Notes under the pieces: generated by a model
Seen by the model: only the letters and a program-made list of their open reading frames with translations
The model's database searches: none
Told to the model about the DNA's origin: nothing
Translations under genes and position numbers: made by a program
Assembly: GCA_964539515.1 (NCBI GenBank)
Contig: CAZIJO010000003.1
Location: 21,490-85,489, forward strand
Source: an uncultured Bifidobacterium sp.
Lineage (GTDB): Bacteria > Verrucomicrobiota > Verrucomicrobiia > Limisphaerales > JADLHS01
Length of the DNA: 64,000 nucleotides
Reading direction: 5' to 3'
Part shown: one piece after another, positions 22,974 through 45,463 of the stretch
How positions within the stretch are numbered: position 1 is the stretch's first letter
Layout: each line of letters starts with the position of its first letter

Positions 22974-23067
22974 GCCAGCAAGTAAACAATCTCTACCTGA
23001 AAAGTAAAGTTTTAGAGAATCAGAGAATATGTCGATATTACAGGCAAAAACAAACTACAAAATAACT

Positions 23068-23093
23068 ATTGACTTAGTAGAGATTAAGTCTAT
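23068..23093 (+). promoter_or_regulatory. candidate Rrf2 operator overlapping a TTGACT -35-like hexamer
   Basis: ATTGACTTA-GTAGAGAT-TAAGTCTAT dyad in the AT-rich divergent intergenic region; the core GTAGAGATT recurs inverted at 22988-22996. Confidence 0.55.
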
Positions 23094-23121: not shown

Positions 23122-23310
23122 ATGAAAACAATCGAAAATTCAGCCAAAACACCAGTGGTGGCGAACCAGGAAACCTGGCTTGAAACGGTGCGTGCCCAAG
23201 TCGCTTCGTTGCGCTTTGGCGTTGTGCAGATTGTTGTTCATGATTCCCAGGTCGTACAGATCGAGCGCACCGAGAAAGTAAGGCTCGACCGTAAACCGTT
23301 GGAAGGGTAA
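23122..23310 (+). CDS. YezD/DUF2292 family small protein
   Basis: SLRFGVVQIVVHDSQVVQIERTEKVRL signature. Confidence 0.9.
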   Translation: MKTIENSAKTPVVANQETWLETVRAQVASLRFGVVQIVVHDSQVVQIERTEKVRLDRKPLEG

Positions 23311-23339: not shown

Positions 23340-25073
23340 ATGAGGAGAATCGCGAAAACAATCCTGTTTGGTTGGAACATGCCAGTCATGGTTTTAGCTG
23401 GCCTGTTGTCACCAGTTGGGGGGAAAGCCCAACCGGTATCTTCGAACACCGTTCCGGCTGCCACGCCCTCCTCCCAAGCGGTCCCTGCTGCCAACGGAGT
23501 TTCTCCGAGCCAGCCAGAACAATCGGAGCTGATCAAAGAACTGCTCGGTCGCTTGGAGCGGCTTGAAAACAAGGAGGCGGAGCAAAAGCAGCGGACCGAA
23601 GCCGCCGAGAAGGCACACCAGGAAGAGGTGCAGAAACTCCTCGGGCGCATCGGTGAACTCGAGGGCAAGGTCGGCTCCCTTGAGTCGGGCAAGGTCCTGC
23701 CCGAGATCGCGGTTTCCCCAAAGGATGGGCCGACAACGCAGGAGCTGGATCAGAAACTTCGGGTGATGGCGCGCAACGAGGAGCTGGCGGCAGAAGCCGC
23801 CGAGGCGCAAGCCGCCGCGCGCGCGAAGGAAACGCCGCGAATCACGGCCGGGGCGAATGGATTCGCCATCAGTTCGGCGGACACGAACTATGTGTTGAAG
23901 CTACGGGGTTTGGTGCAGGTGGATTCGCGTTCCTTTTTTGACGACAATCAATACCTCGAAGGCAATGATGGTTTTTATTTGCGGCGCGCCCGGCCCATTT
24001 TCGAGGGCACGCTCTTTCGTGATTTCGATTTCAATTTGACGCCCGATTTCGGCGGCAACAACGTCCAAATCTTTGATGCCTGGATGAATTACCGTTACCG
24101 GCCCGAGTTGCAGTTGAAGGCCGGAAAGTTCAAGAGCCCGGTCGGATTTGAAATGTTGCAATCCGTCGGCATGCTGCCGTTTAACGAGCGTTCGTTGGTC
24201 AGCAATTTTGTGCCGGCACGAACCCTCGGCCTCCAAATCTGGGGAGACATTGCCGGTGGAGCGGTAAGTTATGCCGCCGGGGTTTTTGATGGCTCCGGGG
24301 ATGCGCGAGTTGCGAGCAACAGCGATATCGATGATGCCAAGGAATTCGCGGGACGGCTTGGGTTTCAACCATTCAAGCAAAGCGCCACCACCATGCTGAC
24401 GGGACTTCGCTTGGGCGCGGGCGGGAGCTTCACCCAGGTGCGTTCCAATACCGCCAGCTTGCCGAACACGACGGGCGGAACTTTGCCCGGTTATGTGACC
24501 TCCGCCTTGCAACAATTCTTTGCCTACAATCCGGCGATCGGGACCGTATATGCCGACGGGGTTCACTGGCGGATTTCCCCCTATGCGGCCTACACCCTGG
24601 GACCATTTGGGCTGTTGGGGGAATACATCGTTGCCCAGCAGGGCGTGGTAAACAGTGTGACCGGGGCGCGCGAGGATTTGTTGGATTCGGCCTGGCAGCT
24701 TTCTGCGCAATGGGTGTTGACGGGTGAAGATGCCTCCTTCACTGGCATCGCGCCGAAGTCGCCATTTGATCCGCGGGCTGGAAAATGGGGAGCCTGGCAG
24801 CTCGTGGCCCGCTTTGCCCAGGCGGATCTTGATTCAGATGCTTTCCCCGTTTTCTCCGATCCCACGCTTTCGGCGCATTCGGCCATGAGTTGGGGAATTG
24901 GGCTGAACTGGTGGCTGAACCGGAATGTCCGGGTGCTTACGAGTTATTCCAGAACCTGGTTTGGCGGCGGGGGCGAGGTGAATCCGGTGTTCATCGGCAC
25001 CCACGTGCCCCCGGCCACGGTTACGCACCAGGACGAAAGCGTATTCATGACCCGGCTCCAGCTTGCGTTTTAA
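23340..25073 (+). CDS. OprO/OprP-family anion-selective porin with N-terminal coiled coil
   Basis: LRGLVQVD, FYLRRARPIFEG, DAWMNYRY, KAGKFKSPVGFE, ERSLV; ends LQLAF (beta-signal Phe). Confidence 0.88.
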   Translation: MRRIAKTILFGWNMPVMVLAGLLSPVGGKAQPVSSNTVPAATPSSQAVPAANGVSPSQPEQSELIKELLGRLERLENKEAEQKQRTEAAEKAHQEEVQKLLGRIGELEGKVGSLESGKVLPEIAVSPKDGPTTQELDQKLRVMARNEELAAEAAEAQAAARAKETPRITAGANGFAISSADTNYVLKLRGLVQVDSRSFFDDNQYLEGNDGFYLRRARPIFEGTLFRDFDFNLTPDFGGNNVQIFDAWMNYRYRPELQLKAGKFKSPVGFEMLQSVGMLPFNERSLVSNFVPARTLGLQIWGDIAGGAVSYAAGVFDGSGDARVASNSDIDDAKEFAGRLGFQPFKQSATTMLTGLRLGAGGSFTQVRSNTASLPNTTGGTLPGYVTSALQQFFAYNPAIGTVYADGVHWRISPYAAYTLGPFGLLGEYIVAQQGVVNSVTGAREDLLDSAWQLSAQWVLTGEDASFTGIAPKSPFDPRAGKWGAWQLVARFAQADLDSDAFPVFSDPTLSAHSAMSWGIGLNWWLNRNVRVLTSYSRTWFGGGGEVNPVFIGTHVPPATVTHQDESVFMTRLQLAF

Positions 25074-25108
25074 GTCCCTGACCTATGAAAGGAATCAATC
25101 AAGTGCAA

Positions 25109-26107
25109 ATGACCAAACTCATCACCCTTTTGGTAGCCGCTTTGGCGGCCTTGGGCTCGGGAGCGGGCGTAAATGCCAAGGACTTCAAGCTCCTCAACGT
25201 CTCCTATGACCCCACGCGCGAGCTCTACACGGAGTACAACGCCGCCTTCGCGAAGTTTTGGAAGGAAAAGACCGGTGACACCGTGAAGATTGATCAATCC
25301 CACGGCGGCTCGGGCAAACAGGCGCGCTCGGTGATGGAAGGACTCTCCGCCGATGTCGTCACCCTCGCGCTGGCTTACGACGTGGACGTCATTGCGGAGA
25401 AGGCGAGACTGTTCCCGGCCACGTGGCAAAAGCGATTGCCCGGCAATAGTGCGCCCTACACCTCGACGATCGTATTCCTGGTGCGCAAAGGGAATCCCAA
25501 AGGCATCAAAGATTGGAACGACCTCGTCAAGCCGGGCGTGGCGATTATTCCGGCCAATCCCAAAACCTCCGGGGCGGCCCGGTGGACGTATCTGGCGGCG
25601 TGGGGCTACGTGTTGAAAAACGGCGGGGACGAGGTGAAGGCGAAAGAATTTGTGGCAAAATTCTACAAGAACGTGCCTGTGCTCGATACCGGCGCGCGGG
25701 GAGCGACCACCACCTTCATCCAGCGCGAAATCGGCGATGTGCTTGTGGGCTGGGAGAACGAGGCGTTCCTTGCGCTCAAGGAATACGGGGCGGACAAATT
25801 CGAAATCGTTGTTCCGTCCGTCAGCATTCTGGCGGAGCCGCCGGTGACGGTCGTGGACAAGGTGGCGAAGAAAAAGGGCACCGAAGCCGTTGCCACGGCA
25901 TATCTCGAATATCTTTACTCGGATGAGGGCCAGGAAATTGCCGGACGGAACTTTTATCGTCCGCGTTCCGAAAAGGCGGCAGCGAAGTACGCCAGCCAAT
26001 TCACCAAGGTCAGTCTGTTCACGATTGATGAAGTGTTCGGTGGCTGGCAGAAGGCGCACAAGGCGCACTTTGCGGACGGCGGCTCCTTTGATCAGATCCA
26101 ACGCTGA
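25109..26107 (+). CDS. sbp: sulfate ABC transporter substrate-binding protein
   Basis: [54 protein letters not shown]-type motif, [11 protein letters not shown]. Confidence 0.95.
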
Positions 26108-26141
26108 ACGCCTCGCGCACCACCGCCAGAGCCCAAAACCC

Positions 26142-27155
26142 ATGAACGTCACCGTTGCCGCAAAACGATTCGCGCTCGGAGCAATGGCCCTTGCTGCGGT
26201 GTCGTTGGCCGCGGCGGCGGAGACGAAGCTCTTGAATGCCTCATTCGACATTTCGCGTGAATTGTTCCAGCGCTACAACGAAGCCTTTGTGCGCCACTGG
26301 CAACAGGCAGGGGGCGCGAGCGTGGCGGTGAATCAGTCGCACGCCGGTTCTTCCAAGCAGGCGCGCGCGGTGATTGATGGCCTGGAGGCCGATGTGGTCA
26401 CTTTCAACCAGGTCACGGATGTGGAAGCGGTGGCCGAGCGTGGTCTGATCGCCCGCGACTGGCGCAAGCTGTTGCCGCATCAAAGTTCGCCTTTCAGCTC
26501 CACGATCGTGTTTCTGGTGCGCCAGGGAAACCCCAAGGGCATCAAGGACTGGAGCGACCTGGTGCAGCCCGGCATCTCGGTGATCGTGCCCAATCCGAAA
26601 ACCTCGGGCAACGGCCGTTACAGTTATTTGGCGGCGTGGGGATACGCGCTGAAGCAATCCGCCGGTGACGAGGCGAAGGCCCGCGAGTTTGTGGGGAAAC
26701 TGTTCGCGAACGTTCCCGTCCTCGACACCGGCGGTCGCGGTGCCACCACGACATTCGCCCAGCGCGAAATCGGCGATGTGCTGCTGACCTTCGAGGCGGA
26801 GGTGTATTTGACGGTGAAGGAATTTGGCGCGGGGAAATTCGAGGCGGTCGTGCCTTCGTGCAGTATTGAGGCCGACATGCCCGTGGCCGTAGTCCAAAAG
26901 GTGGTTGGCAAGCGCGGCACGGAGCAACTCGCACGCGCTTATCTCGAACACCTTTATTCGGACGAAGGGCAGGGGATCATTGCGGCCAATTATTATCGGC
27001 CCCGATCGCAAAAGGTTGCCGGGCAATACGCCGCCCAGTTCGGCAAGCTGGAGTTGTTCTCCGTCGAGAAAGTCTTTGGTGATTGGGCCAGCGCGCAAAA
27101 GACGCATTTCAGCGAGGGCGGCGTGTTCGACCAACTCTACAAAAAATCCAAGTGA
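26142..27155 (+). CDS. cysP: thiosulfate/sulfate ABC transporter substrate-binding protein (CysP-like)
   Basis: SFDISRELF, QSHAGSSKQAR, DVVTFNQVTDV and SGNGRYSYL match CysP rather than Sbp. Confidence 0.85.
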   Translation: MNVTVAAKRFALGAMALAAVSLAAAAETKLLNASFDISRELFQRYNEAFVRHWQQAGGASVAVNQSHAGSSKQARAVIDGLEADVVTFNQVTDVEAVAERGLIARDWRKLLPHQSSPFSSTIVFLVRQGNPKGIKDWSDLVQPGISVIVPNPKTSGNGRYSYLAAWGYALKQSAGDEAKAREFVGKLFANVPVLDTGGRGATTTFAQREIGDVLLTFEAEVYLTVKEFGAGKFEAVVPSCSIEADMPVAVVQKVVGKRGTEQLARAYLEHLYSDEGQGIIAANYYRPRSQKVAGQYAAQFGKLELFSVEKVFGDWASAQKTHFSEGGVFDQLYKKSK

Positions 27156-27157
27156 CC

Positions 27158-27982
27158 ATGAGCACGACCATGATTTCACGCTTCCCGGAAAAGCCGGCGG
27201 CAGCCCGCCTGCGTTCAGCCGGCGACGCCGTTGCGCCATTGGAGGCGCTGGCGGCCAGTTCGCCCAATTTGGTGGCGAATCACGAATTGCGCTTCGATCA
27301 GGCCGGTGAGTCCTATGTGTTGCCGCGTTACACTTATCTCGGGCTCCGCGGGGGCGACCGCCCCATCCGCATCGGCATTTTTGCCGGGATTCATGGCGAT
27401 GAGCCCGAGGGCGTGCGCGCGGCGGTGTTGTTTCTGAAGCTGCTGGAGAGCGTGCCCGAGGTGGCGCGAGGTTACTCCCTCACGGTCTATCCGGTTTGCA
27501 ACCCCACGGGCTACGAGGACAACACTCGCTTGTCACGCCGGGGCAGGGACCTGAACCGTGAATTCTGGACGAACTCGGGCGAGCCAGAGGTGAAACTTCT
27601 CGAAGCCGAGCTGGGCGCGCGTTCATTTGACGGCATCATCTCCCTGCACACGGACGATACCAGCGATGGTTTCTACGGTTATGCGCGGGGCGCCACATTA
27701 ACCAAACACCTGATCGAACCCGCCCTGGCCGCTGCCGAGCGGATTTTGCCGCGTAATGCTCGTGAGACCATCGACGGCTTTCGGGCGCGCAACGGAATCA
27801 TCTTGGAATGCTACCAAGGCGTCCTGAGCGCGCCGGCCAGTGCAAGTCCGCGTCCATTCGAAATCATCCTCGAAACGCCGCAGTCGCCCGCCCCCGAGGT
27901 CAAGGACGCCGCCTTCGTCGCGGCATTGCAAACCATCCTGCTCGAATACCGGAAGTTCATTGCCTACGCGCCCAACATTTGA
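27158..27982 (+). CDS. M14-family Zn metallopeptidase/deacylase (AstE/AspA-like), intact active site
   Basis: IHGDE, NPTG...R...DLNR, SLHTD, ILETP; no signal peptide; ends AYAPNI. Confidence 0.85.
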   Translation: MSTTMISRFPEKPAAARLRSAGDAVAPLEALAASSPNLVANHELRFDQAGESYVLPRYTYLGLRGGDRPIRIGIFAGIHGDEPEGVRAAVLFLKLLESVPEVARGYSLTVYPVCNPTGYEDNTRLSRRGRDLNREFWTNSGEPEVKLLEAELGARSFDGIISLHTDDTSDGFYGYARGATLTKHLIEPALAAAERILPRNARETIDGFRARNGIILECYQGVLSAPASASPRPFEIILETPQSPAPEVKDAAFVAALQTILLEYRKFIAYAPNI

Positions 27983-27992
27983 GCCCGCAACC

Positions 27993-28826
27993 ATGACGCT
28001 CGTGAACTCCAAACGGCACCCGGTCAAAGCGGCGAACGACTCGCGCCAGCCGGACCGGCTGTTGCGCTACTTCGATGCCGTCGCGGAAAAATCCGGCCAC
28101 CTGCTGAGCAAGGCGGTGAAGACGTTCGAGTCCGCTGGCGAACTCTATGGCCTCCCGCGTTTTATTTGGGCCGGGCCAGCGGGTGGTCATGACACGTTTC
28201 GCCTTGGCATTTTCGCCACGTTGAATGGCGATGAGCCGGAGGGCGCGTTTGCCCTGACGCGATTCATCGCGGGATTGGAACAAGCGCCCGAACTGGCGCG
28301 GGGCTATGCTTTCTCGATTTATCCGCTCTGCAACCCCACGGGCTTCGAGGACAACACCCGCCTCTCCCGTGCCGGCGCTGCGTTGAACCGTTTGTTCTGG
28401 ACCGAATCCGACGCGCCCGAAGTCCGCTTTCTCGAATCGGAAATCTGGATGCAGGCGTTTCACGGCATCCTCAACCTGCGCAGTGACGCGGAAACTGCGG
28501 GCGTTTATGGCTTCGCCTCGGGTGGGATCATCTCGCAGGCCTTGCTGCAACCCGCGCTTCAGGCGGCGGGAACCTTTCTCCCGCGCAATCGTCAACGCGA
28601 GATCGACGGCATCCCCGCCCGGCGCGGGATGGTGTATGCGGACATCTACAACGCCGCGCGCGGAGCGTTGCGCGCCGTGCCTGGCCTGGAGAATCCGCCG
28701 TTTGAAATTACCCTGGCCACACCGCGCGCGGCCGCGGTGCATCTGCAAGTCGAGGCGCTGAATGCGGCGTTGCTTGCCATCCTGTCCGAATTCCGCTCAT
28801 TACAGGCCTATGCCCAGAACATTTGA
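27993..28826 (+). CDS. M14-family paralog with degenerate active site
   Basis: Co-linear with paralog 1, but LNGDE (H>N), ALNR (D>A), LRSD (H>R), TLATP (E>A); ends AYAQNI. Confidence 0.82.
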   Translation: MTLVNSKRHPVKAANDSRQPDRLLRYFDAVAEKSGHLLSKAVKTFESAGELYGLPRFIWAGPAGGHDTFRLGIFATLNGDEPEGAFALTRFIAGLEQAPELARGYAFSIYPLCNPTGFEDNTRLSRAGAALNRLFWTESDAPEVRFLESEIWMQAFHGILNLRSDAETAGVYGFASGGIISQALLQPALQAAGTFLPRNRQREIDGIPARRGMVYADIYNAARGALRAVPGLENPPFEITLATPRAAAVHLQVEALNAALLAILSEFRSLQAYAQNI

Positions 28827-28846
28827 ACCACGACCAAGGTGAACCC

Positions 28847-29671
28847 ATGAAAACCACTGCGCTTGCCCCCGCCATCCGTGCCGGATTCAACCTGCGCGAG
28901 CGTCCCACGCTGGCCGATCTGTTGGCGCCCCTGGATCAACTCGCTGCCAAGTCGTCCAATCTGCTTGCCCGGCCCCTTGGGCAGTTTGAGCGCGATGGCC
29001 ACAGTTACGCGATGCCACGCTACATTTTCGTCGGCCCGCAAGGCGGGGATGTGCCGATTCCCGTCGGCATTTTCGCCGGCATCTATGGGGATGAACCGGA
29101 AGGAACACGCGCATTGGTGAAGTTCGCCCAATTGCTCGAAGCGCATCCCGAACTTGCCGCCGGGTATGTCCTGTTCCTCTATCCGGCTTGCAATCCCACC
29201 GGGCTCGCGGCGGGCACGGCGTTTTCCAGCCGCGGCAAGGACCTGAATCTTGAACTTGTGAAGATCTCTCACGAACCCGAGGCGCGCTGGTTGCAAAGTG
29301 AACTCGCGTCGCAACACCTGGAAGGCATCATCAAGCTGCACACCAAGGCCGGGAGCAATACCTTCTACGGGCTGGTTCGGGGCGAGACCCTTGCGCGCCA
29401 ACTGCTGGATCCCGCGCTGGCCGCCGCCGCGGAATTGTTGCCGGTGGCGGAGGACTCAGGCATCGAGGCGTTTCGCGCGCGGGATGTTTCCTACGACCAC
29501 TATGAAGGTGGATCGCCGACGGCGCCAGAAGCTCCGACGCGTCCGTTCGAGGTCATTCTCGAAACGCCCGGGCAGGTTCCGGCTTATCTTCGCGAATGGG
29601 CCTTCGTGCTGGCGCTACGTTCCATTCTGACCGAGTACCGGAAATTCCTCGCCTACGCTCCCAACCTTTGA
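28847..29671 (+). CDS. M14-family paralog, partly degenerate
   Basis: IYGDE (H>Y), DLNL (R>L); LHTK and ILETP retained; ends AYAPNL. Confidence 0.82.
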
Positions 29672-29697: not shown

Positions 29698-30663
29698 ATG
29701 CCTCGCATCTACAACAACATCACGGAAACGATCGGCAATACGCCGCTCGTGCGCTTGAATCGCACTGCGCAAAACCATGGCGCGGTCGCCGAGGTCCTGC
29801 TCAAACTGGAATTCTTCAATCCGCTGTCCAGCGTGAAGGACCGTATCGGGGTGGCGATGATTGATGACGCCCTGCAAACCGGGAAGATCAACCCGAGCAC
29901 GGTGCTCATCGAACCCACGAGCGGCAACACCGGCATCGCGCTCGCCTTCGTGGCGGCGGCCCGGGGACTGAAGTTGATTCTCACCATGCCCGAAACCATG
30001 AGCCTCGAACGCCGCAAGCTGCTCAAGATTCTTGGCGCAAAATTGGTCCTGACCGAGGGCCCAAAAGGGATGAAAGGCGCCATCGCCAAGGCCGAGGAAT
30101 TGCGCCAGCAGATTCCGAACAGCGTCATTCTTCAGCAGTTCTCCAATCCGTCGAACCCGGCGATTCATCGCAAGACCACGGCGGAGGAAATCTGGCGCGA
30201 CACGGACGGCAAAGTTGACTTTGTTGTCGCGGGTGTTGGAACGGGTGGGACGATCACCGGCGTGGCCGAAGTCATCAAGTCGCGCAAGCCTGCTTTCAAG
30301 GCAATCGCGGTTGAGCCGGTCAAATCGCCGGTCATTTCGGGCGGCCAGCCCGGCCCGCACAAGCTGCAGGGCATCGGCGCGGGTTTCATTCCGGACAATC
30401 TAAACGTGAAGATCGTGGACGAGGTCATCAAGGTGGATGAAGCCGAATCCGGCCCGGTGTCGAAGGAGATCAACCGCCTCGACGGGATTCCCGTTGGCAT
30501 TTCGAGCGGCGCCATTGTTTGGGCGGCGTTGCAAGTGGCAAAGCGCCCGGAGAACTTAGGCAAGCAGATTGTCGCCATCGTGCCGTCCGCCTCGGAACGT
30601 TATCTGTCATCGTGGCTGTTTGCCGACATTGATACGGAGAGCGACAAGCTCGATTTCGTCTAG
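29698..30663 (+). CDS. cysK: cysteine synthase A (O-acetylserine sulfhydrylase)
   Basis: [15 protein letters not shown] (PLP Lys), [41 protein letters not shown]. Confidence 0.96.
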
Positions 30664-30931: not shown

Positions 30932-31062
30932 GCGCTCGCTGATCCTCAGCCTGATTCGTTCCCGCCTTCGGTTGACACCGCTGGCTGCGGTGTCGTCGCG
31001 CCCGTGCGCGGTTGTTTCCCGTGTTTGACCTCATTGAGCACAGAAAACCAAACACAGTGAAA

Positions 31063-32049
31063 ATGAAATCAAATCAAAACCTGAAACCCATCCGCAGCGT
31101 CGCTGCGGTGGTGGGTGGTTTTGCCTGGTTCACCGGGGCGGCGTTCGCAGCGCCATTCCTGTACAGCTCGGGTGATCTCGTGCTGGCGTTCCGCCAGACC
31201 GGATCGGCGAGTGATTACGCCGTGAACATCGGCAAGGCTACCAACTATAACAACCTGCCGGGAGGTTCAACCTTCGCGGTTACCAACTTGTCCGTCTCCC
31301 AACTCGGTGCCGCTTTTCCGAGTGTGAACGAATTGAAGTGGTCCGTGGCGGGCGCCATTCGCACGGCGGGCAATCCAACCTATCCCATCCAGACCCTCTG
31401 GGTGAGCCGGCCCCGCGTGGATGCCGGCACGCCCAGCGCGCCCTGGTTGCGGCGCAGCACTTCGACCCAGGGCACCGCCGGCGCGCAGATTGACGCCGTC
31501 GGAGTGCGCGCTGCCAACGGCAGCAGTTTCCTCGCAGCCGGACCCAACAACACTGTGACCGGAGTCGTCTTGCCCGTGGCCAGCGACTTCAATCTCGGTC
31601 AAGTCATTGGCACGTTCGGTAATTATGACAACACGTTTCAGGGAAATGTGGAGAATCTCACCGCCGCTGATTTTGACGGTGCGCCTGAAAACGTTTCCCG
31701 CTCGGACTTGTATGAACTGTTGCCGGGCAACAGCGCGTTAAATCTGCCGGGACGCTTCCTGGGCTTCTTTGAACTGAAGCCCAACGGCGCGTTGACCTTC
31801 ACGGCGGCCTCCACGGTACTGCCGGCGCCGACAATCACCAGCATCACCCGCACCGGCGATGTCACCACCGTCTCCTTCACGACGGTTTCCGGCGGAACGT
31901 ATCGGTTACGGGCTACTAATGCAGCGGGATTGACCACGCCCGTCTCGACCTGGACCACTGGCAATTCCCTTGCGGGCACGGGCGGAGTGTTGTCGCTCAC
32001 GGACACCAATTCCGCCGACATCCGCTTCTTTGCGGTGGATGTGCAATAA
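31063..32049 (+). CDS. secreted Ser/Thr/Gly-rich protein with Verrucomicrobia-type C-terminal Ig-like domain; no Cys or Met after the start
   Basis: Signal peptide ending AFA-A; GDLVLAFR N-terminus; C-terminal PTITSITRTG...YRL...W...TDTN...RFFAV domain. Confidence 0.85.
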   Translation: MKSNQNLKPIRSVAAVVGGFAWFTGAAFAAPFLYSSGDLVLAFRQTGSASDYAVNIGKATNYNNLPGGSTFAVTNLSVSQLGAAFPSVNELKWSVAGAIRTAGNPTYPIQTLWVSRPRVDAGTPSAPWLRRSTSTQGTAGAQIDAVGVRAANGSSFLAAGPNNTVTGVVLPVASDFNLGQVIGTFGNYDNTFQGNVENLTAADFDGAPENVSRSDLYELLPGNSALNLPGRFLGFFELKPNGALTFTAASTVLPAPTITSITRTGDVTTVSFTTVSGGTYRLRATNAAGLTTPVSTWTTGNSLAGTGGVLSLTDTNSADIRFFAVDVQ

Positions 32050-32126
32050 CCTGAACCGAACTAAACAACTGAAAACGGAATTATCCCTATTTGAAATCGA
32101 AAACTTGAACCTTTGAGAGACTGATT

Positions 32127-33203
32127 ATGAAAACGACAAACTTACTGATAATTGCGGCGGGCGCGGTGCTCGCTGTCACCAGCGCGCAGGCGCAGGTGGA
32201 AATCAACATCTCCGGCGCGGTGGCCTTTCGTGATACGTCCTATCGTGCCATCCGGGCGCTCTATGGAGCAAATCTCGCGTCGGAGAATAACCTCACCCCG
32301 CCGCCCTCTTCACTAAAGGTGACGTGGACGGGGCAGATCACGAACTTGTTCGGCAATCAAACTGTCACCATCCGCACGTTCTACAACGGGGCCAACGCCG
32401 GCATCCAGGACCTGGTGCAGAATCGTAACGTCAACTACCTGGCGTCTTCGACCCCGGGAGGCACCTCCACGGTGAATCTCCAGTCGGACCTGGCGTATTC
32501 CTCGGTATTCCAGGCATCCACGCCATATACCTCGCCCGCCCTGGAAGATGTGCGCTTTGGTCTCACGCCGGTCTTTTTCGTCAAGAGCACCAGTGCTCCG
32601 GCGGGATTGACCAACATCACCGTGCAACAATTCCGCACGCTGGCAGCCAACGGTTCCGTTCCCGGTTGGTTTCTGACCGGCAACACCAATGATACCGCAC
32701 CCATCTACTACGTCAGCCGCGACCCGAGTGCTGGTCAGCGGACGATCATCGAACGCGAACAGGGATTCTACGGCAACGCGATCTTCTACAACTGGAACCC
32801 TGCTACGACCCAGTTCGATCCTGATCCCACCGGGCGCACGTCCACGCAGATTCGCGACCTGCTGAACATCTCCGGCCCGGCAGTCAGTTATTTGACCGGA
32901 GTGGACGCGGTGAACGTCAATGGCGGGGCCAATATCCTGGCTTTGAATGGCTTTCGGCCGGTGTTGAATCCTTACAACTCCGTCAGCAACAATCACGCGC
33001 CGGTCATCAACGGCCAATACACGCAGTGGGGCTATGAGCACATCTTCATTCGGACCACCGCATCGGCCAACCTCCGCAACTTCCGTAATGCGCTGATTGC
33101 GAAGATTGATGAGGACCTGCAAACCTCCGCTTACTCAATTCCGCTGAGTCGCGCCCGGGTCGAGCGCTCGGCGCAAGGTGGCCCGGTCTCGCCCCTTGAT
33201 TAA
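32127..33203 (+). CDS. secreted PstS-like (PBP-fold) solute-binding protein; no Cys or Met after the start
   Basis: Signal peptide ending AQA-Q; ISGAVAFR, GANAGIQ, VSRDPSAGQR and YTQWGYEH resemble PBP/PstS-fold motifs. Confidence 0.65.
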   Translation: MKTTNLLIIAAGAVLAVTSAQAQVEINISGAVAFRDTSYRAIRALYGANLASENNLTPPPSSLKVTWTGQITNLFGNQTVTIRTFYNGANAGIQDLVQNRNVNYLASSTPGGTSTVNLQSDLAYSSVFQASTPYTSPALEDVRFGLTPVFFVKSTSAPAGLTNITVQQFRTLAANGSVPGWFLTGNTNDTAPIYYVSRDPSAGQRTIIEREQGFYGNAIFYNWNPATTQFDPDPTGRTSTQIRDLLNISGPAVSYLTGVDAVNVNGGANILALNGFRPVLNPYNSVSNNHAPVINGQYTQWGYEHIFIRTTASANLRNFRNALIAKIDEDLQTSAYSIPLSRARVERSAQGGPVSPLD

Positions 33204-33269
33204 GTAATACTCGTTGCCGCCGGCGCGGGTCCCTGGCCCGCGCCGGCTTCTGCCCGAGCGACCATACGA

Positions 33270-35768
33270 ATGGAGCCATCTTCAAGATTCAATCGAATGC
33301 CGGGTCTGCAAACCGGAGTTCTGATTATGACCGCCCTGCTCATCGCCGCCCGCTTCAGCGGAACAATGGCGCTGGCGCAGTCCACCAATGCGCCGATCGT
33401 TCCCAGCTATCAGGTCGCGCGCTATGAACTCGATAGTCCGGTGCTCACTCCGGCGGACGTGGAACGGTTGACGGCCGACGCAACCGGTGATGCCGTGACC
33501 GTGGCGGAAATCCGGCGCGCCCTGAACCGATTGCAAACCGCCTTGCGCGAGCGCGGCTATCGACAGGCGGCATTGACGTTGCCACAGCAAGCGCTCACCA
33601 ATGGCGTGGTGCGCGTGCGGGTGTGGGAAGGTCCGGCGCCGGGCCAGGCCGCGCCGGCGGCGACCCCGCCGGTGGAACTGCCGGCGTTGGCTGCGCCGGC
33701 CTACGACATCCGCCACTTTGAAATTCACGGCAACACCAAGCTTTCGCCGGAGGCGATCGACCGCATTCTCGGTCCGGCGGCCGGGCCGTCGGCCAATCTT
33801 GATGCGTTGCGCGAAGCGCTGGTGAAACTGCGTGACGCTTACCGCGAGCGCCGCCTGCCGCTGGCCACGGTCACCGTTCCGGAACAATTGCTGACCGATG
33901 GCACGATTGTCATCCAGGTGAACGAGGGTTGGGATCCCGAGGCGGAAGCGCTCGCCAAAGCACAAACCGTGACGCCAACCAATGTTCCAGCCACTCCCCC
34001 CGAGCGCACGTTTGAGGTGCGTCGTTATGAAGTGCTGGGCAACACGTTGCTCGCCCCGGCTGCAATTGATGCCATCGTCACCAATGGCGTTGGCACGAAC
34101 GTCACGTTCACGCAGGTGCGGAAGGTTCTCGGGGATCTGCAACTCGCCTATCGCGAGCGCGGTTTTGCCAGCGCCAGCGTAGCGCTGCCGCCCCAGCAAC
34201 TCACCAACGCCACCATCAAAATCCAAGTCACCGAAGGCGTGCTCGTGGATGCGCGCGTGACCGGCAATCGCTATTTCAGTTCCAACAACGTCATGCGCGC
34301 TTTGCCGTCGGTGGCCAACGCGCTCATCTGGAAGGACGAGGTAATCAACAGTCGCGTGTTGCAGCGTGAACTGGACCTCGCGAATCAGAACCGGGACCGG
34401 CAGATTTATCCGGTCCTCAATCCCGGCCCCGACCCGGGCACGACCGCCTTGGATTTGCGGGTGAAGGACCGCTTGCCCTTGCACGGGCGATTGGAGCTCA
34501 ACAATCAATCGACCCCCGGCACGCCGGACTGGCGGCTCAACGCCTCTGCTAATTACAACAACCTCTGGCAACGGGAGCACGCTGTTGGCATTTTCTATGG
34601 ATTCACCCCCGAGGAGTTCAAAGTCCCGCAGCCAGACCCGGATTACTTTTTCAACCGGCCGCTCGTGGCGAACTTCGGCGCTTATTACCGCATTCCGTTT
34701 GGCGAGCCGCAATCGGTGCAGGAGATCATCAGCGGCAACCGCAACTTTGGCTTTGACGAGGCGACCAAGCAGTTCCGCCTGCCGCCACCGGGCAGCCGGC
34801 CGGACCTGACATTCTCCGTCAGTGGTTCTTCCAGCGACACTGGTGTCAATTACGGCCCGACCACCGTGGTTTCCCAGACGCCGTTGCTGACGATTCTCTC
34901 CCGGGACAGCGGCCAGGATTTGAACTTAAATCAAAGCGCTGGCTACAACCTCAATCTGCCGCGCGCTTTGAGTGACACCCGCCGCCTCAACTTCTCCCTC
35001 GGCATGGACTGGAAGCGCAGCGAGAAGGAGAGTTACAACACGAACAACTTTCTGATCATTACCGTCATCACCAATTCCCAAGGGTCGCAGATTATTACCA
35101 GCGAGGTGTCGTCGCCACAGCCCCCGCGCAAGACCGAGGTCAACTATCTGCCGCTTAACTTCGGGTTCAGTTTCGCGGATGCAAGTCCGAAAGCCACCTT
35201 GTTTGCCAGCGTGGTCTTGAGCGCCAATTTTCTGGGCAACGACTCTGATTTTGTTGCCGCCTCGTACACCCCTGAAGCGCAGGCGGAATATGCGAAGGCC
35301 GTCTTTGCGCTGAGCTACGATCGCAAAGTGTTCAACGACTGGTCGCTGTTGTGGCGACTCAATGGGCAGGCGGCGACGGGACCGTTGATCAACAACGAAC
35401 AATTTGCCGTCGGCGGCATCAACAGCGTGCGGGGCTATTATGAGGGCGATGAGTACGGAGACGTCGGTTGGTTTACCAGTGCGGAGCTGCGCACGCCATA
35501 CCTTGCCACTGAAGCCGGAGTGGTGGATGGCTTCACGCCGGTTTGGTTGCGGGGTTCGATATTTCTCGACGCCGGCCAGCCGATCTATCTCGACGATGTT
35601 CCTTGGGTCGCGCCGGACCGCTTTCTCTGGAGCACGGGTTTTGGCCTCTCAGCAAACATCAACAACCACTTTGACGCGAAAGTTGCAGTCGGTTGGCCGC
35701 TGGCCGACTCCGCCAACACCCAGGCTTATCAACCGCGCGTGCTCTTCTCATTGGGAGGACAGTTTTGA
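33270..35768 (+). CDS. ShlB/FhaC/HecB-family two-partner-secretion outer-membrane transporter (TpsB)
   Basis: Repeated POTRA motifs (YRERG...LPxQ.LT.G...I.V.EG), PGPDPGTT, conserved VRGY loop; ends LGGQF. Confidence 0.92.
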   Translation: MEPSSRFNRMPGLQTGVLIMTALLIAARFSGTMALAQSTNAPIVPSYQVARYELDSPVLTPADVERLTADATGDAVTVAEIRRALNRLQTALRERGYRQAALTLPQQALTNGVVRVRVWEGPAPGQAAPAATPPVELPALAAPAYDIRHFEIHGNTKLSPEAIDRILGPAAGPSANLDALREALVKLRDAYRERRLPLATVTVPEQLLTDGTIVIQVNEGWDPEAEALAKAQTVTPTNVPATPPERTFEVRRYEVLGNTLLAPAAIDAIVTNGVGTNVTFTQVRKVLGDLQLAYRERGFASASVALPPQQLTNATIKIQVTEGVLVDARVTGNRYFSSNNVMRALPSVANALIWKDEVINSRVLQRELDLANQNRDRQIYPVLNPGPDPGTTALDLRVKDRLPLHGRLELNNQSTPGTPDWRLNASANYNNLWQREHAVGIFYGFTPEEFKVPQPDPDYFFNRPLVANFGAYYRIPFGEPQSVQEIISGNRNFGFDEATKQFRLPPPGSRPDLTFSVSGSSSDTGVNYGPTTVVSQTPLLTILSRDSGQDLNLNQSAGYNLNLPRALSDTRRLNFSLGMDWKRSEKESYNTNNFLIITVITNSQGSQIITSEVSSPQPPRKTEVNYLPLNFGFSFADASPKATLFASVVLSANFLGNDSDFVAASYTPEAQAEYAKAVFALSYDRKVFNDWSLLWRLNGQAATGPLINNEQFAVGGINSVRGYYEGDEYGDVGWFTSAELRTPYLATEAGVVDGFTPVWLRGSIFLDAGQPIYLDDVPWVAPDRFLWSTGFGLSANINNHFDAKVAVGWPLADSANTQAYQPRVLFSLGGQF

Positions 35769-38700
35769 ATGAAGACTATTGAGCCAAAAAATTTGAAGGA
35801 CGCTCGCCCTCACCCCGTCCCTCTCCCTCGGGGAGAGGGAGGGCCAATCAGCGTCAACGAAAGCTCCGGTCGTCTTGGTTGCATCCGCCGCCAAATAATT
35901 CGTCAAGGTGGGTCTCATCAGCAAACTGGTGATGTTTCAAATGGCAAGACGCGGCGAGAATTTCTCCCTCTCCTGGGGGAGAGGGCCGGGGTAAGGGCGG
36001 GTGTTGTCACAAATCTCATACGAGTCTTCTCGGTTACGGTGGCGTTCCTGATCACCACAAACGTGTTGGCCAACCCGAATGGTCTCAGCGTTCAGAGCGG
36101 CAATGCCAGCGTCACTGTCAACGGCAACCAATACCACATCACGGCGTCGCACAATGCCATCCTCAACTGGCAGTCCTTCAACATCGCTGCGGGCGAAACC
36201 ACCCGTTTCATTCAACCCTCGGCATCCTCCGTTGTTTGGAATCGCATCCACGACGCCAGTCCATCGCAAATTTACGGCAATCTTGCCGCCAACGGGGTAG
36301 TGGTGTTGATGAACCAGAACGGCTTTTACTTCGGGCCGAATTCGTTCGTGAGCGCGGCGGGGCTGATTGTTTCCACCGCGCCGTTTGTGCCGGCGGAAAG
36401 TGGCGGCGGATTGTTCTGGCAATTCACCGGTCCAGCACCTGGGGCAAGCATCATCAACTACGGTCAGTTTAGCGTGGGGCAGGGCGGCTCAGCGTTTCTG
36501 ATTGCCGAAACCATCGAGAATCACGGTAGTATCACCGCGCCCGGCGGCAGCATCGGCCTGATCGCCGGACAGGAAATCTTGCTGAGTGAACGGCCCGATG
36601 GGCGCGGCTTGAGCGCTTCGGTCACGCTGCCCACGGGGGCGGTCAACAACTCCGGCGATCTGATTGCGGATGCCGGCACGATTGCCCTGAACGCGCGTGT
36701 GGTGAACCAGCATGGATTGGTGCAGGCCAACTCGATTCGCGAGCGCAACGGCATCATCGAATTGATTGCCTCGGATTCGCTCACCCTCGGGCAAGACTCC
36801 ATTGTTTCTGCCAGTGGAGATTCGGTTGGTGTGAGCGCCGGCGGCGCGATTGTCATCAAGTCCGCCGGCACATTCGCGGACGAGACTGGTTCTCAGATTG
36901 AAGTCCGGGGTGGGTCGCTGGGCGGTGACGGAGGCTTCGCGGAAGTCTCCGCGCCGCTCATGGATTCCATCGAGTCGCAAATTGATGGCCGTGCGGCTGT
37001 CGGTTATCGCGGCGGACGATTGCTGATTGATCCGCAGGACATCGTGATCGGTTTCAGCGGTGGCACCCTTGGTTCGGGCACGGTAGGAGCGAATGATCCG
37101 CCCGTCCCCGGCACGCTCAACCTCGACGTGAACTCGTCGTTCCTGGGCTTCTCTCAAATTATACTGCAAGCCACGCGCAACATCACCCTGGCATCGGGGG
37201 TCACCTGGGATCTCGTCGCCAGTACCGGCCTCAGCGAACCCGGCAGCCTCTTGAAACTTGAGGCCGGCAACAACATCACGCTTTCCAGCGGCGCGAGCAT
37301 TCTCGCCGGTGAGAACTGGTCGGTGACTTTGCAGGCCGGGCGTGACTTTTCACTGGCGGACTCAGTGATTGCCGGCACCGGCAACATTCTGTTCTCGGGG
37401 ACAGGTTCGTTGCAGGCGCAAAATGGAAACATCAGTTTGCTGGCGGGCAACAACCTCAGCGTGGGCAGCGGCCACGTGCGGACAATTGGCGGCGGCCGCA
37501 TCAGTGCCCATGCGGTGGGCGGCAGCATCAACACCGGCACGAAGGCGAACGGTTTTATCTTTGTGCCCACCGGTTCGGGCTACAACGTGAGCGCCGACCT
37601 CGGCGGCATCAGCACGGCCAGCGGTGGCGATGTGTCGCTGACGGCCGGATTGGATGTGTTGAGCTATCTTCCGATCGCGGGCGGGGTGCAAACTGACGCC
37701 GGCAGCGGCGCTTTCGGTGCGGCCCCTGGCAACGTGACCATTACTGCCGGTCGGGATGTTGGCGGGCATTTTGTCGTGCGCAATGGTGTGGGCAGTATCA
37801 CTGCCGGCCGCAACGCCGGCCTCGCCACGCGTCTGCTTGCGCTGAGTCTGGTGAGCGGTGGCTGGACGGTCAACGCCGCCAACGACATTCTGCTGCAGGA
37901 GGTGCGCAATCCGAACGGGGTGTTCAACAATCTCGGATCGAGCACCTCGCCCAATCGGCATCGCTTCGACTACGCCGCCAATGCCTACACGATCTTGAAC
38001 GGCGGTCACTCCGTGCAATTGCGCGGGACGGCGCTGCCGCGTTATCTCGACGTCTTTTCGCAAGGCATTCCGGCGATTTATCCCGGGCTGCTTGAAATCA
38101 CCGCCGGTGCGGGCGGTGTGGTCCTTGGCAACGATGTCATTCTGTTTCCCGCGCCCAACGGCAACCTCAGCATCGCCACCACGGACGGCGGTTCGCTCTT
38201 TGGCACGCGCGCCGGCGATCTCACCCAGCTGGTCTTTTCCGACAGTGGCAAGACGCAGTATCGGGCATTCGGTGATTTCGGGATCGCGGATCGCTCGGGC
38301 AACCTGCTGCACCTGAACGACCCGGTGCCGGTCACACTGGACATTGCGGGCGACATGGACGGCATTCTGCTGGGCGTGCCCAAACGCGCGGAGATCAGCA
38401 TTGGCGGCAACATGGTCAACAGCCGGTTCGACGGGCAGAATCTTCGCGCCACGGATGAAACCCGCATCACGGTTGCGGGCAACATCATCAATCGAAACGA
38501 ATTCACGACGGTCGCCAGTCCGCAGCCGAATTTCCGGTTGTTCGATCCGCTGCTTGATTTGATTTATCCGCCGCTGACCGGTGGCGCTGCCGGTGTTCAA
38601 AACCAGTTCATCTACAATCCGACGACTGGTGAGCTGACGTTCCAGGGCCGCATGACGGGCGAACAGTTGCAGGCGTTGCTGAATCTGACCGTGCGGGCCT

Positions 38701-40025: not shown

Positions 40026-40056
40026 GCCACTACCGCAATCCATTTCCAAAACCTCT

Positions 40057-40869
40057 ATGCTAACCGAAACCCTCCTCACTCCCATGTTCGCCTCGGGCGC
40101 GCTCCAGTTCGCGTTCGAAAAAGCCACGCTCGAAGGCAAGCTCACCATCGGCGCGCTCGTCATCGTGTCGCTGTTCAGTTGGTCGGTCATTATTACCAAA
40201 ATCCTCCAACTCTGGCGCGCGAGCCGGGTGTCGAAAAGGTTCTTTGACGCCTATCACGAGACGCGCGACCCGCTGGAGTTGCAGCGCAAGGGGCTGAAGT
40301 TCGATGGCGCGCCGGCTTACGAATTGTACGAGGCCGGGCAAAAGGAACTTCAGTTCCAAATCACGAAACATCCCGTGGTCGTGAAGGGCGAGGCCAGGAT
40401 TACCCAGGCCAGTTTTGATTCGGTGCGGGTCTCACTGGAAGAAGCCGCGATGCACGAGGCGCTCGCGCTGGAGAAGGGGATGATTGTGCTGTCCACGGCC
40501 GTGGCGGGCGGGCCGTTCATTGGTTTGCTCGGCACTGTCTGGGGCGTCATGGAGACTTTCTCCGGCATCGCGAAGGCAAATTCCGCCAGCCTCACTGCTA
40601 TGGCACCCGGTGTCGCGGGCGCGTTGATTGCCACGGTCATTGGCCTGCTGGTCGCGATTCCCGCGATGTTCGCCTACAACTTCATGGTGACGCGGATTCG
40701 CGCGTTCACACAGGAACTGGACGCGTTTGCCATCCGGTTCGCCACGCAGATCGAACACACCTACGTGGACGCGCGGCCCATCGGCGAGGAGGTTTCCGAA
40801 GCCATCACCCGCGCCATTCGCAAGGAGGGCTATGATGCCAACACCGTCATTCAGGCGGCGCATATATGA
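40057..40869 (+). CDS. exbB: MotA/TolQ/ExbB proton channel protein
   Basis: AGGPFIGLLGTVWGVMETF, APGVAGALIATVIGLLVAIPA. Confidence 0.93.
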   Translation: MLTETLLTPMFASGALQFAFEKATLEGKLTIGALVIVSLFSWSVIITKILQLWRASRVSKRFFDAYHETRDPLELQRKGLKFDGAPAYELYEAGQKELQFQITKHPVVVKGEARITQASFDSVRVSLEEAAMHEALALEKGMIVLSTAVAGGPFIGLLGTVWGVMETFSGIAKANSASLTAMAPGVAGALIATVIGLLVAIPAMFAYNFMVTRIRAFTQELDAFAIRFATQIEHTYVDARPIGEEVSEAITRAIRKEGYDANTVIQAAHI

Positions 40870-41279: not shown

Positions 41280-41283
41280 GCAA

Positions 41284-42484: not shown

Positions 42485-42499
42485 GTGCGCCGCACTCGG

Positions 42500-43327: not shown

Positions 43328-43427
43328 GCGCTACTTTTCAAAAGGCTGATCTTTGTCTCCCCGCCGGGTTCAAGTCGCCAGTACTTTGCAGAGTAGATCG
43401 TTTGCGGTCGGATTAACGGACGCTTAA

Positions 43428-44363
43428 ATGGCTGGCATTACCAAAAAACAATGGGCCGGAGGGCGCAAGAAATCGCAACGCGGGACGGAAGAATCCCCGT
43501 TTGCGAAATGGACGCTCATTGCCCTGGCGATGCTGTTTTGCCTGGTTTTTCTGCTCCTGCCGCTGATCAACGTGTTTGCGCAGGCGTTTGCCAAAGGTTG
43601 GACGGCTTACTGGTCCGCGCTGACGCATCCGGATTCCTGGTCGGCGATCAAACTCACCCTGCTGGTGGCGGCGATCAGCGTGCCGTTGAATGTGCTGTTC
43701 GGGCTCGCGGCCGCCTGGGCGATTGCCAAGTTCGAGTTTCGCGGCAAGGCGCTGCTCATCACCTTGATCGATCTGCCCTTCTCGGTTTCGCCGGTGGTGG
43801 CGGGCTTGATGTTCATCGTGTTGTTTGGTCTGCAGGGTTTTTTTGGCGAATGGCTGAACGATCATGACTTCAAAGTCATTTTTGCGGTACCCGGGATTGT
43901 GCTGGCGACGGTGTTCATCACCTTCCCGTTCGTGGCCCGGGAGTTGATCCCCGTGATGCAGGCGACCGGCACGGACCAGGAGCAGGCGGCCCTCACCCTG
44001 GGCGCCAACGGCTGGCAGACTTTCTGGCACGTCACGCTGCCGTCCGTAAAGTGGGGGCTGATCTACGGGATTATTTTGTGCAACGCCCGCGCGATGGGCG
44101 AATTCGGCGCCGTGTCGGTGGTGAGCGGTCACATCACCGGGCAGACGGATACAATGCCTTTGCGGGTGGAGAAACTTTACAACGAGTATCAGGGGCCGGC
44201 GGCTTTCGCCGTCGCCAGTCTCCTGGCGATGCTGGCGCTGGTAACATTGGCTATCAAAACCTTCCTGGAATGGAAGCAGCACCGGGAATTTGAACTCGCC
44301 CAGCAGGCGACGCTGGGGGAGACCGGCGACACGGTTTTCCTGGCGCAACCCAAATCTGAATGA
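43428..44363 (+). CDS. cysW: sulfate ABC transporter permease CysW
   Basis: LIDLPFSVSPVVAG, FPFVARELIP, ARAMGEFGAVSVVSG, TMPLRVE. Confidence 0.95.
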   Translation: MAGITKKQWAGGRKKSQRGTEESPFAKWTLIALAMLFCLVFLLLPLINVFAQAFAKGWTAYWSALTHPDSWSAIKLTLLVAAISVPLNVLFGLAAAWAIAKFEFRGKALLITLIDLPFSVSPVVAGLMFIVLFGLQGFFGEWLNDHDFKVIFAVPGIVLATVFITFPFVARELIPVMQATGTDQEQAALTLGANGWQTFWHVTLPSVKWGLIYGIILCNARAMGEFGAVSVVSGHITGQTDTMPLRVEKLYNEYQGPAAFAVASLLAMLALVTLAIKTFLEWKQHREFELAQQATLGETGDTVFLAQPKSE

Positions 44364-45463
44364 GCATCGAACTGAAAGGCGTCACCAAGAAATTCGGCGA
44401 GGTCACCGCCGTGAATGATGTCAATTTCTCCGTCAACGACGGGGAATTGATGGCCTTGCTGGGGCCCAGCGGCGGCGGCAAGACGACGGTGCTGCGGATG
44501 ATTGCGGGCCTCGAAGTGCCGACCGAAGGGGACATCTTCGTCCGGGGCGAGCGGGTGAACGATGTGCCGGTGCAGAAGCGCAACATCGGGTTCGTCTTTC
44601 AGAGTTACGCGCTGTTCAAGAGCATGACGGTGTTCAAAAACATTGCCTTCGGTCTGAAGATAAAAAAGTGGAAGCCGGCGGAGGCCGAGGCCCGGGTGAT
44701 GGAATTATTGCAACTTTTTGGTCTGGCCGGCCTGGAGAATCGTTATCCGCACCAGCTATCCGGCGGGCAGCGGCAACGCGTGGCCATCGCCCGCTCCCTG
44801 GCGCCCAAGCCCGGCGTGCTGTTGCTGGATGAACCGTTTGGCGCCGTGGACGCAAAGATCCGCCAGGAGTTGCGCGAGTGGCTCGTGACCCTGCACCACG
44901 AGCTGAATGTGACTACGATTTTCGTCACGCACGACCAGGAGGAAGCGATGGAAGTTTCGAATCGCATCGTGATTTTCTCGAAGGGAAATCTCGAACAGAT
45001 CGGGACGCCGCGCGAAGTCTATGAACAACCGGCGAACGAATTCGTGGCGCGCTTTGTAGGTGTAATGAACGTCCTCGACACCGAGGTGTCGGGGGGCGTC
45101 GCCCGGATCAATGAAATGGCGTTTCCGGCCGGTGGTCACGCCGACGGCATGCGCCTGCGGATAGGTTTCCGGCCGTACGCGGTGCAGGTTTCCAATGATC
45201 TGGCCCTGCTTCCCTATCGCGCCGTATTGCGGCACACTTTCTTCCTCGGAATCCTGCTACGGCTCGAATTGGAACTGGCCTCCGGCCTGATCATTCGTAG
45301 CCGTATGACAAAGGAAGAATATGCCCAGCTGGGCCTGGTTGACGGTCGGGAGGTGTCGTTTCAAATCAAAAGTTACCGTGTGCTGGCGAGCGAAGATGCC
45401 CGGCTGGCGCCGGAGTTGGAGGCGACGTACCAAGCCCCGCCAACCATCGGCGAGCACATTTGA
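44360..45463 (+). CDS. cysA: sulfate ABC transporter ATP-binding protein CysA
   Basis: GPSGGGKT Walker A, FVFQSYALF, LSGGQRQRVA, LLLDEPFGA, THDQEEA; TOBE-like tail. Confidence 0.95.
   Translation: MSIELKGVTKKFGEVTAVNDVNFSVNDGELMALLGPSGGGKTTVLRMIAGLEVPTEGDIFVRGERVNDVPVQKRNIGFVFQSYALFKSMTVFKNIAFGLKIKKWKPAEAEARVMELLQLFGLAGLENRYPHQLSGGQRQRVAIARSLAPKPGVLLLDEPFGAVDAKIRQELREWLVTLHHELNVTTIFVTHDQEEAMEVSNRIVIFSKGNLEQIGTPREVYEQPANEFVARFVGVMNVLDTEVSGGVARINEMAFPAGGHADGMRLRIGFRPYAVQVSNDLALLPYRAVLRHTFFLGILLRLELELASGLIIRSRMTKEEYAQLGLVDGREVSFQIKSYRVLASEDARLAPELEATYQAPPTIGEHI

Follow-up and report, generated by a model that had tools for sequence, protein, structure and literature searches.

Which of the proteins encoded around a cysK gene could dock onto the enzyme by their last residue? 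The question is raised by a 64,000-nucleotide stretch of contig CAZIJO010000003.1 (here called the window), from an uncultured bacterium deposited as a Bifidobacterium sp. and placed by GTDB in the Verrucomicrobiota. The window carries a Verrucomicrobial sulfate-uptake and cysteine-synthesis operon. Translation and Pfam and NCBIfam profiles give the gene order as a divergent Rrf2-family regulator, DUF2292, Porin_O_P, two sulfate-binding proteins (Sbp), three M14-fold proteins (M14a, M14b and M14c) and CysK, the O-acetylserine sulfhydrylase A. A first-pass annotation had read the C-termini of M14a, M14b, M14c and Rrf2 as IAYAPNI, QAYAQNI, LAYAPNL and ALDFVI, exactly as the translated window gives them, and had proposed that all four proteins form a network on CysK, inserting a C-terminal Ile into its pyridoxal phosphate (PLP) site. 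The idea of a tail-based network, and the place of Rrf2 in it, find support, while the inclusion of the M14 proteins is probably wrong. The explanation we favor, and think probable, is that the M14 tails are a family signature, and that Rrf2 and the sulfate ATP-binding cassette (ABC) ATPase CysA, together with CysE, are the most likely Ile-insertion partners of the PLP site. The genes, their order and the tails, with the statistics of tail conservation, were read directly; what is proposed below on binding and regulation in this system is inferred from them.

Moonlighting of CysK by way of a C-terminal Ile is known for a handful of proteins: CysE, CymR, the CdiA-CT toxin and nematode EGL-9. 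A 2026 paper names these four, and only these, as tail partners. The terminal Ile is described as strictly conserved and required; it accounts for about 80% of the energy of binding, which its deletion or substitution abolishes (PMC12895370, PMC9547175, PMC5562914, PMC3388911). In Staphylococcus aureus, the CymR tail (…GYMFYI) inserts in the CysK active site, and the peptide no longer bound once its terminal Ile was replaced (bioRxiv 10.1101/2024.09.19.614015). The residues preceding the Ile are more varied. Plant serine acetyltransferase (SAT) provides DYVI, with a Ki of 4 µM, and Mycobacterium tuberculosis CysE provides DFSI (PMC3388911); the latter, the cognate CysE peptide of M. tuberculosis CysK1, proved to be an inhibitor when tested (Schnell 2007, cited in the same paper). 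The GDGI tail of StCysE binds CysK (PMC12895370), and Haemophilus influenzae CysE ends in MNLNI (PMC9547175). The CysK of the window has every active-site motif that contacts partner tails: the TSGNTG loop at residue 74, QQF at 146, GTGGT at 181 and a 10-residue motif at 218. Its best matches in the PDB are 4lma (Microcystis cysteine synthase) and 2q3b (M. tuberculosis CysK1).

The M14 tail was compared among 120 close orthologs, in a sample of 80 species-level related loci, nearly all labelled Verrucomicrobiota or Verrucomicrobiia, and among diverse representatives chosen at one per 50% identity. The 80 loci were retrieved with a nine-sequence M14 alignment, which returned close M14a orthologs only. 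In the close orthologs, the tail reads [FL]-I-A-Y-A-x-N-[L/I], with Tyr(-4), Ala(-3) and Asn(-1) all but invariant; across the whole family, the signature is EYR-x-[FL]-x-A-[YFH]-A-x-N-[I/L]. The terminal residue is more often Leu than Ile at each depth of sampling: 89 Leu and 30 Ile in the close orthologs, 58 and 9 in the genome loci, and 33 and 25 in the 58 diverse representatives with a recognizable tail. Ile-ending members cluster in the window's own clade (at least 73% identity) and are sporadic elsewhere; M14c itself ends in Leu. The invariant terminal Ile of partners that insert in the CysK active site is thus not found in the M14 proteins, whose tail is probably a family motif and not a CysK anchor. 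The tail common to the three paralogs is inherited from a motif of the whole family; the three endings are not three independent events, and chance is not at issue. A search of the PDB with the sequence of the tail region gave no match.

The retention of the tail in a catalytically dead paralog had been offered as an argument for docking. M14b is indeed dead, as had been stated: Asn and Arg stand in place of the two His and Ala in place of the catalytic Glu in alignments. However, the argument from it does not carry, as the HxxE zinc motif is missing in 32 of the 58 tail-bearing representatives, and tail retention without catalysis is the rule in the family. What, then, might the tail do? In the AlphaFold model of M14a (pLDDT, the predicted local confidence score, 93.7 on average), a long C-terminal helix spans residues 246–269, and since confidence falls to pLDDT 64 in the four final residues after this confident helix, the tail is best read as a short exposed stub. 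The stub may serve as an interface within the M14 family, either as a subunit contact or by filling, in the manner of a reaction product, the carboxylate-binding pocket of a neighboring subunit. Such an intra-family interface would explain why the tail is retained in many dead paralogs. Hetero-oligomers of M14 proteins would fit the Asn-Arg carboxylate clamp that M14b keeps and the abundance of pseudoenzymes with the tail, although no other step of the proposed scheme is as weak. Alternatively, the tail could be purely structural, capping the C-terminal helix and packing on its own monomer with no docking at all. Tyr(-4) lies at the end of the high-confidence helix, the motif is continuous with a conserved L-x-E-Y-R helix segment, and it is present in active and dead members alike. 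We nevertheless consider this somewhat unlikely: Asn(-1) is invariant in spite of the low confidence of the last four residues, and nearly every full-length member of the family stops at exactly the final tail residue, which suggests that the position of the free carboxylate matters.

The Rrf2 regulator presents a different picture. Past its Rrf2 domain, a tail of about 17 residues runs to a C-terminal ALDFVI (codons 22509–22526). The terminal Ile is found in 119 of 120 window-type orthologs, with the pattern xDF[VIMN]I, and in 51 of the 52 Rrf2 genes of the 80 related loci, both subfamilies included. The second subfamily occupies the same operon position, is 41–47% identical and is co-directional with the operon. 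Its tail reads G-F-x-G-G-E-G-I, with GGEGI or GGAGI endings. DFVI resembles DYVI of plant SAT and DFSI of M. tuberculosis CysE, and GEGI resembles GDGI and the GYGI of CdiA-CT. An invariant Ile at the end of a flexible tail resembling validated CysK ligands is what a partner would be expected to have, and the earlier proposal of the Rrf2 tail as a CysK anchor is in this respect supported. The protein scores below the equivalog cut-offs for both CymR (84 bits) and IscR (87 bits); for CymR, the model is NF047409 with a cut-off of 195, so the regulator is not a CymR ortholog, although it may work in the same way. Its second-best PDB match is Bacillus subtilis CymR (2y75). It has four Cys (C94, C103, C105 and C111) with IscR-like spacing, and could sense Fe-S or redox state in addition to O-acetylserine. 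In the divergent Rrf2/DUF2292 promoter, a conserved 29-bp block, AAACTACAAAATAACTATTGACTTAGTAG, holds a TTGACT hexamer that by eye matches the sigma-70 -35 consensus. The block is a candidate operator for Rrf2, although no exact inverted repeat was found in the promoter.

CysA was not part of the earlier proposal and emerges here as a new candidate CysK partner. In the window it ends in PPTIGEHI, on a tail of about 25 residues after the TOBE domain. In the Verrucomicrobiota surveyed, the Ile is terminal in all 120 window-type orthologs, with the pattern P-P-P-[TS]-[IL]-[GA]-[ED]-[NHG]-I and typically -GE[NH]I. The neighboring positions vary, and a few orthologs read TIGDGI. A second CysA subfamily, the common operon type, has [DE]-D-[YF]-S-I in 35 of 37 true orthologs (36 of 37 when one window-type sequence, L032, is counted), and this tail contains the M. 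tuberculosis CysE peptide DFSI. CysA, like Rrf2, would thus be recognizable as a partner by an invariant C-terminal Ile on a tail similar to those of validated ligands. As controls, the permeases encoded next to CysA end in Ile in one of 43 cases (CysT) and in none of 41 (CysW), and CysA of Escherichia coli K-12, which ends in LALAQSA, has no Ile tail. No published report of a bacterial CysA docking to CysK was found in full-text literature searches.

Could the terminal Ile of Rrf2 and CysA have nothing to do with CysK? It might reflect shared ancestry or another function, such as a degradation signal or an intramolecular contact with the TOBE domain. The literature searches just mentioned are in line with this, and the DD[YF]SI tail of CysA extends only about six residues beyond the last predicted strand. 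But Rrf2 and CysA each come in two subfamilies whose tails are unrelated, and all of them end in Ile. The residues upstream copy those of experimentally validated CysK ligands (PMC3388911). The tail is missing from the neighboring permeases and from E. coli CysA. Finally, two Rrf2 variants (L061 and L067) have lost the Cys motif and still keep a DYVI tail. On balance, we regard a role apart from CysK as unlikely.

The same organisms also provide the strongest argument against anchoring by the M14 proteins, in the form of an internal control. With the same CysK present, Rrf2 and CysA hold Ile at 98–100%, and the M14 proteins do not. The proposal under test was that the C-terminal residue of M14a and M14b, and perhaps of M14c, enters the active site of CysK, where these proteins would compete with Rrf2 or form a channelling complex. 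The M14 genes lie immediately upstream of cysK in the window and in 30 of 67 related loci, and the stub appears exposed and is strongly conserved. The -NI ending is shared with H. influenzae CysE (PMC9547175) and with window-type CysA (-ENI), and Ile prevails in the window's own clade. However, Leu is the majority ending, flips between Ile and Leu are recurrent, and Ile is described in the literature as strictly required (PMC12895370, PMC5562914). Fixed Tyr, Ala and Asn with a free last residue are the reverse of what is seen in the known partners, and the tail persists in paralogs of unrelated contexts. Insertion of the M14 tails in CysK is in our view distinctly unlikely. Two arguments considered at this point were dropped. 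Adjacency of cysK does not discriminate: the AYAPNL tail is present in 23 of 30 loci with an adjacent cysK vs. 29 of 37 without, and Ile-ending M14 in 6 of 30 vs. 3 of 37. It is uninformative because tails thought to be real anchors, such as the Ile tail of CysA, persist in loci without an adjacent cysK as well. Nor can the shortness of the M14 tail be held against docking, the DD[YF]SI tail of CysA being equally short. A further idea, that the carboxypeptidase-like M14a encoded in the operon edits or mimics the Ile tails of other proteins, is very improbable.

Several points weigh against the assignment of Rrf2 and CysA as anchors and of the M14 tail as a family signature. The counts are inflated by shared ancestry, and the anchors were assigned from sequence. 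The CysA tail is predicted to be coil, in a low-quality AlphaFold model (pLDDT 55), and the survey of its Ile covers Verrucomicrobiota. An intra-family role of the M14 tail is something we infer. Moreover, within the window's own clade (the same limit of at least 73% identity), Ile ends most M14a orthologs, and with an -NI end like that of H. influenzae CysE, a lineage-specific gain of CysK binding by M14a and M14b is possible. The case against Leu is built on the invariance of Ile in natural partners and on published statements that substitution abolishes binding; a direct measurement of a Leu-terminated peptide on CysK was not found in the literature consulted.

If Rrf2 and CysA are indeed the anchors, the following scheme can be envisaged. 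CysK would bind the Rrf2 tail in the manner of CymR, and the CysK-Rrf2 complex would repress the operon. The repression would be stabilized at low O-acetylserine, and O-acetylserine would release the complex. Binding of CysK to the CysA tail would couple the activity of the importer to the state of O-acetylserine, the acceptor, and of sulfide. CysE would compete for the same site, as in the classical cysteine synthase complex. Taken together, we would tentatively picture Verrucomicrobiota CysK as a hub that gauges O-acetylserine against sulfide, and for which the Rrf2 repressor, serine acetyltransferase and CysA compete by their Ile tails. In such a case, gene expression, acceptor synthesis and sulfate pumping would all be gated by the occupancy of one active site. 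The search for cysE bears on one member of the set: the first-pass annotation had stated that none is present, and tblastn with an E. coli CysE sequence as the query gave no match in the 64-kb window. The sole adjacent CysE found is in a related locus (L040, 5626–6621), where cysE occupies the position held by Rrf2 in other loci. Its ending, AADYDYAI, looks like a canonical CysK-binding tail.

The nearest known system is CymR-CysK of B. subtilis and S. aureus, which shares with the window an Rrf2-type regulator of sulfur and cysteine metabolism, a flexible Ile-ended tail, and cysK in the regulated neighborhood. The window Rrf2 differs in that its tail, like that of the second subfamily, is CysE-like (DFVI and GGEGI, respectively) rather than YMFYI, in belonging to Verrucomicrobiota, and in its IscR-like Cys cluster, which is missing from B. 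subtilis CymR in the alignment. The cysteine synthase complex also has Ile-ended tails, in which D-[FY]-x or G-[DE]-[GNH] comes before the Ile, such as DFSI in M. tuberculosis, DYVI in plants, and GDGI in both E. coli and Salmonella. As in that complex, the window tails would compete with O-acetylserine at one site. Here, however, the carriers would be a transcription factor and an ABC ATPase, and not a serine acetyltransferase. For an importer there may be a parallel in plants. Shibagaki and Grossman are reported to have found in 2010 that the STAS domain of SULTR1;2 binds OAS(thiol)lyase. A sulfate importer physically linked to cysteine synthase would then be the common feature, although SULTR1;2 is of the SLC26 class and not an ABC importer, and a C-terminal Ile anchor is not known to be involved.

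If correct, the assignment of Rrf2 would extend the CymR mechanism beyond the Firmicutes, and a direct contact of CysK with CysA would let bacteria adjust sulfate import post-translationally to how much O-acetylserine and sulfide is available. The comparison of the tails also suggests how to search for partners: a candidate is marked by a terminal Ile that stays invariant while the residues upstream vary, and not by a variable end after fixed residues.

The M14 proteins are of interest in their own right. They belong, as judged from their sequences, to an uncharacterized AstE/AspA-like M14 subfamily, a conserved member of the sulfate operon with widespread pseudoenzyme paralogs. M14a, M14b and M14c are tandem paralogs, mutually 45–50% identical in alignment, with scores to PF24827 of 38, 27 and 19 bits (cut-off 25). 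M14a has the M14 fold and an intact zinc and catalytic set (H79 and E82 of the HxxE motif, H164, and the catalytic E239), and it keeps the carboxylate-binding N133 and R134. In M14c, Tyr replaces the first zinc His and Leu replaces R134 of the clamp; like M14b, M14c is without the full set of zinc ligands and catalytic Glu, and it is probably inactive. Foldseek matches M14a to M14 structures with its highest probability (1.0; top matches 3b2y, 2qvp and 4oko). The nearest folds, with template-modeling (TM) scores of about 0.72–0.76, are those of Francisella REP34 and of three putative metallopeptidases from Shewanella (3b2y, 2qvp and 3ieh). The closest NCBIfam model is weak (NF052223, Shewanella N-acetylornithine deacetylase, 38 bits vs. 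a cut-off of 400). M14a resembles the AstE/AspA-type deacylases and these metallopeptidases in its M14 fold, its HxxE...H zinc site, the E-T-P setting of its catalytic Glu, its Asn-Arg clamp and its length of about 270 residues. It differs from them in an identity of just 22–25%, with a TM score of about 0.72 and the low NF052223 score, and the C-terminal EYR...AYAxN[IL] motif and the sulfate-operon setting are specific to the window subfamily. By family analogy, an N-acyl amino acid or a C-terminal residue would be a reasonable substrate for M14a, candidates being N-acetylserine, N-acetylcysteine and Ile- or Leu-terminated peptides. Among the fusions of M14 family members examined, none was with CysK, which would have been Rosetta-stone evidence. 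Those seen have an N-terminal DCC1-like thiol-disulfide oxidoreductase (P0158, 423 residues) or HPr (P0137, 376 residues), and could be real or artefacts of gene calling.

The coordinates of the locus are collected in Table 1. In the related loci, the usual order is Rrf2, DUF2292, porin, Sbp, M14a, CysK in some, CysT, CysW and CysA. M14a lies between sbp and cysK or cysTWA across the 80 loci, which makes it a core gene of the Verrucomicrobiota sulfate ABC-importer operon. Most species have a single M14 copy, and the triplet is found in close relatives of the window. In the window lineage, an insertion of about 11 kb (31012–42404) interrupts the ancestral operon between cysK and cysTWA, and the latter (42485–45463) lies 12 kb downstream of CysK. 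The window cysT and cysW were identified by tblastn, with 71% and 33% identity to the CysT permease of a related locus (L074).

Table 1. Features of the sulfate operon and of the inserted block, in window coordinates.
Feature	Coordinates	Strand	Remarks
Rrf2-family regulator, 155 aa	22506..22973	-	PF02082, 134 bits over residues 3-138
Conserved 29-bp block AAACTACAAAATAACTATTGACTTAGTAG, divergent Rrf2/DUF2292 promoter	23052..23080	.	Invariant across window, L002, L004 and L005; flanks diverge
DUF2292 small protein, first operon gene	23122..23310	+	PF10055, 60 bits; same position in most of 80 related loci
Porin_O_P anion-selective outer-membrane porin	23340..25073	+	PF07396, 112 bits; syntenic in related loci
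Sbp1, sulfate-binding protein, tandem with Sbp2	25085-26107	+	NF008022 and TIGR00971 (441-524 bits, both Sbp)
Sbp2, sulfate-binding protein	26130-27155	+	NF008022 and TIGR00971 (441-524 bits, both Sbp)
M14a, AstE/AspA-like M14-fold zinc hydrolase, active site intact	27158..27982	+	Ends IAYAPNI (27959-27979)
M14b, pseudoenzyme paralog	27993..28826	+	PF24827, 26.6 bits; ends QAYAQNI (28803-28823)
M14c, paralog	28847..29671	+	Ends LAYAPNL (29648-29668)
CysK, O-acetylserine sulfhydrylase A	29698..30663	+	TIGR01139, 445 bits vs. cut-off 351
Two inserted proteins	31012-32049; 32127-33203		No Pfam matches
ShlB/POTRA-type two-partner-secretion (TPS) transporter	33270-35768		Inserted block
TPS exoprotein, 1418 aa	35769-40025		Inserted block
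ExbB-ExbD-TonB-ExbD set	40057-42404		Inserted block
cysT, sulfate ABC permease	42485-43327	+	BPD_transp_1
cysW, sulfate ABC permease	43428-44363	+	BPD_transp_1
CysA, sulfate ABC ATPase with TOBE domain	44360..45463	+	ABC_tran and TOBE; ends PPTIGEHI (45443-45460 = TIGEHI)

Some minor observations may be added. A Shine-Dalgarno-like AAGGTG precedes the M14c ATG at 28847. The C-terminus of CysK (30628–30663) reads ESDKLDFV and resembles the Rrf2 tail ALDFVI minus its final Ile; the likeness is probably a coincidence, CysK C-termini not being conserved in related loci. More distant M14 contexts come from a few single contigs, several of them very short. In one (L085, 5126–9397), a distant M14 paralog with CGDE for HGDE and the ending LAIRQNI has as neighbors a SrpI-like family-2 encapsulin, a 539-residue cysteine desulfurase-type aminotransferase and a rhodanese, which is another tie of the M14 family to sulfur metabolism. 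In another (L083), a distant tail-bearing paralog is found beside MlaE and an ABC ATPase. A ShlB/TPS layout similar to that of the window is present downstream of cysK in a related locus (L001). In the public metagenome-assembled genome contig JBAOIL010000037.1 (L001/L004, 11702–13573), the C-termini of M14c and cysK are lost by apparent frameshifts, which are likely assembly errors since the near-identical Logan contig L002 has both genes intact.

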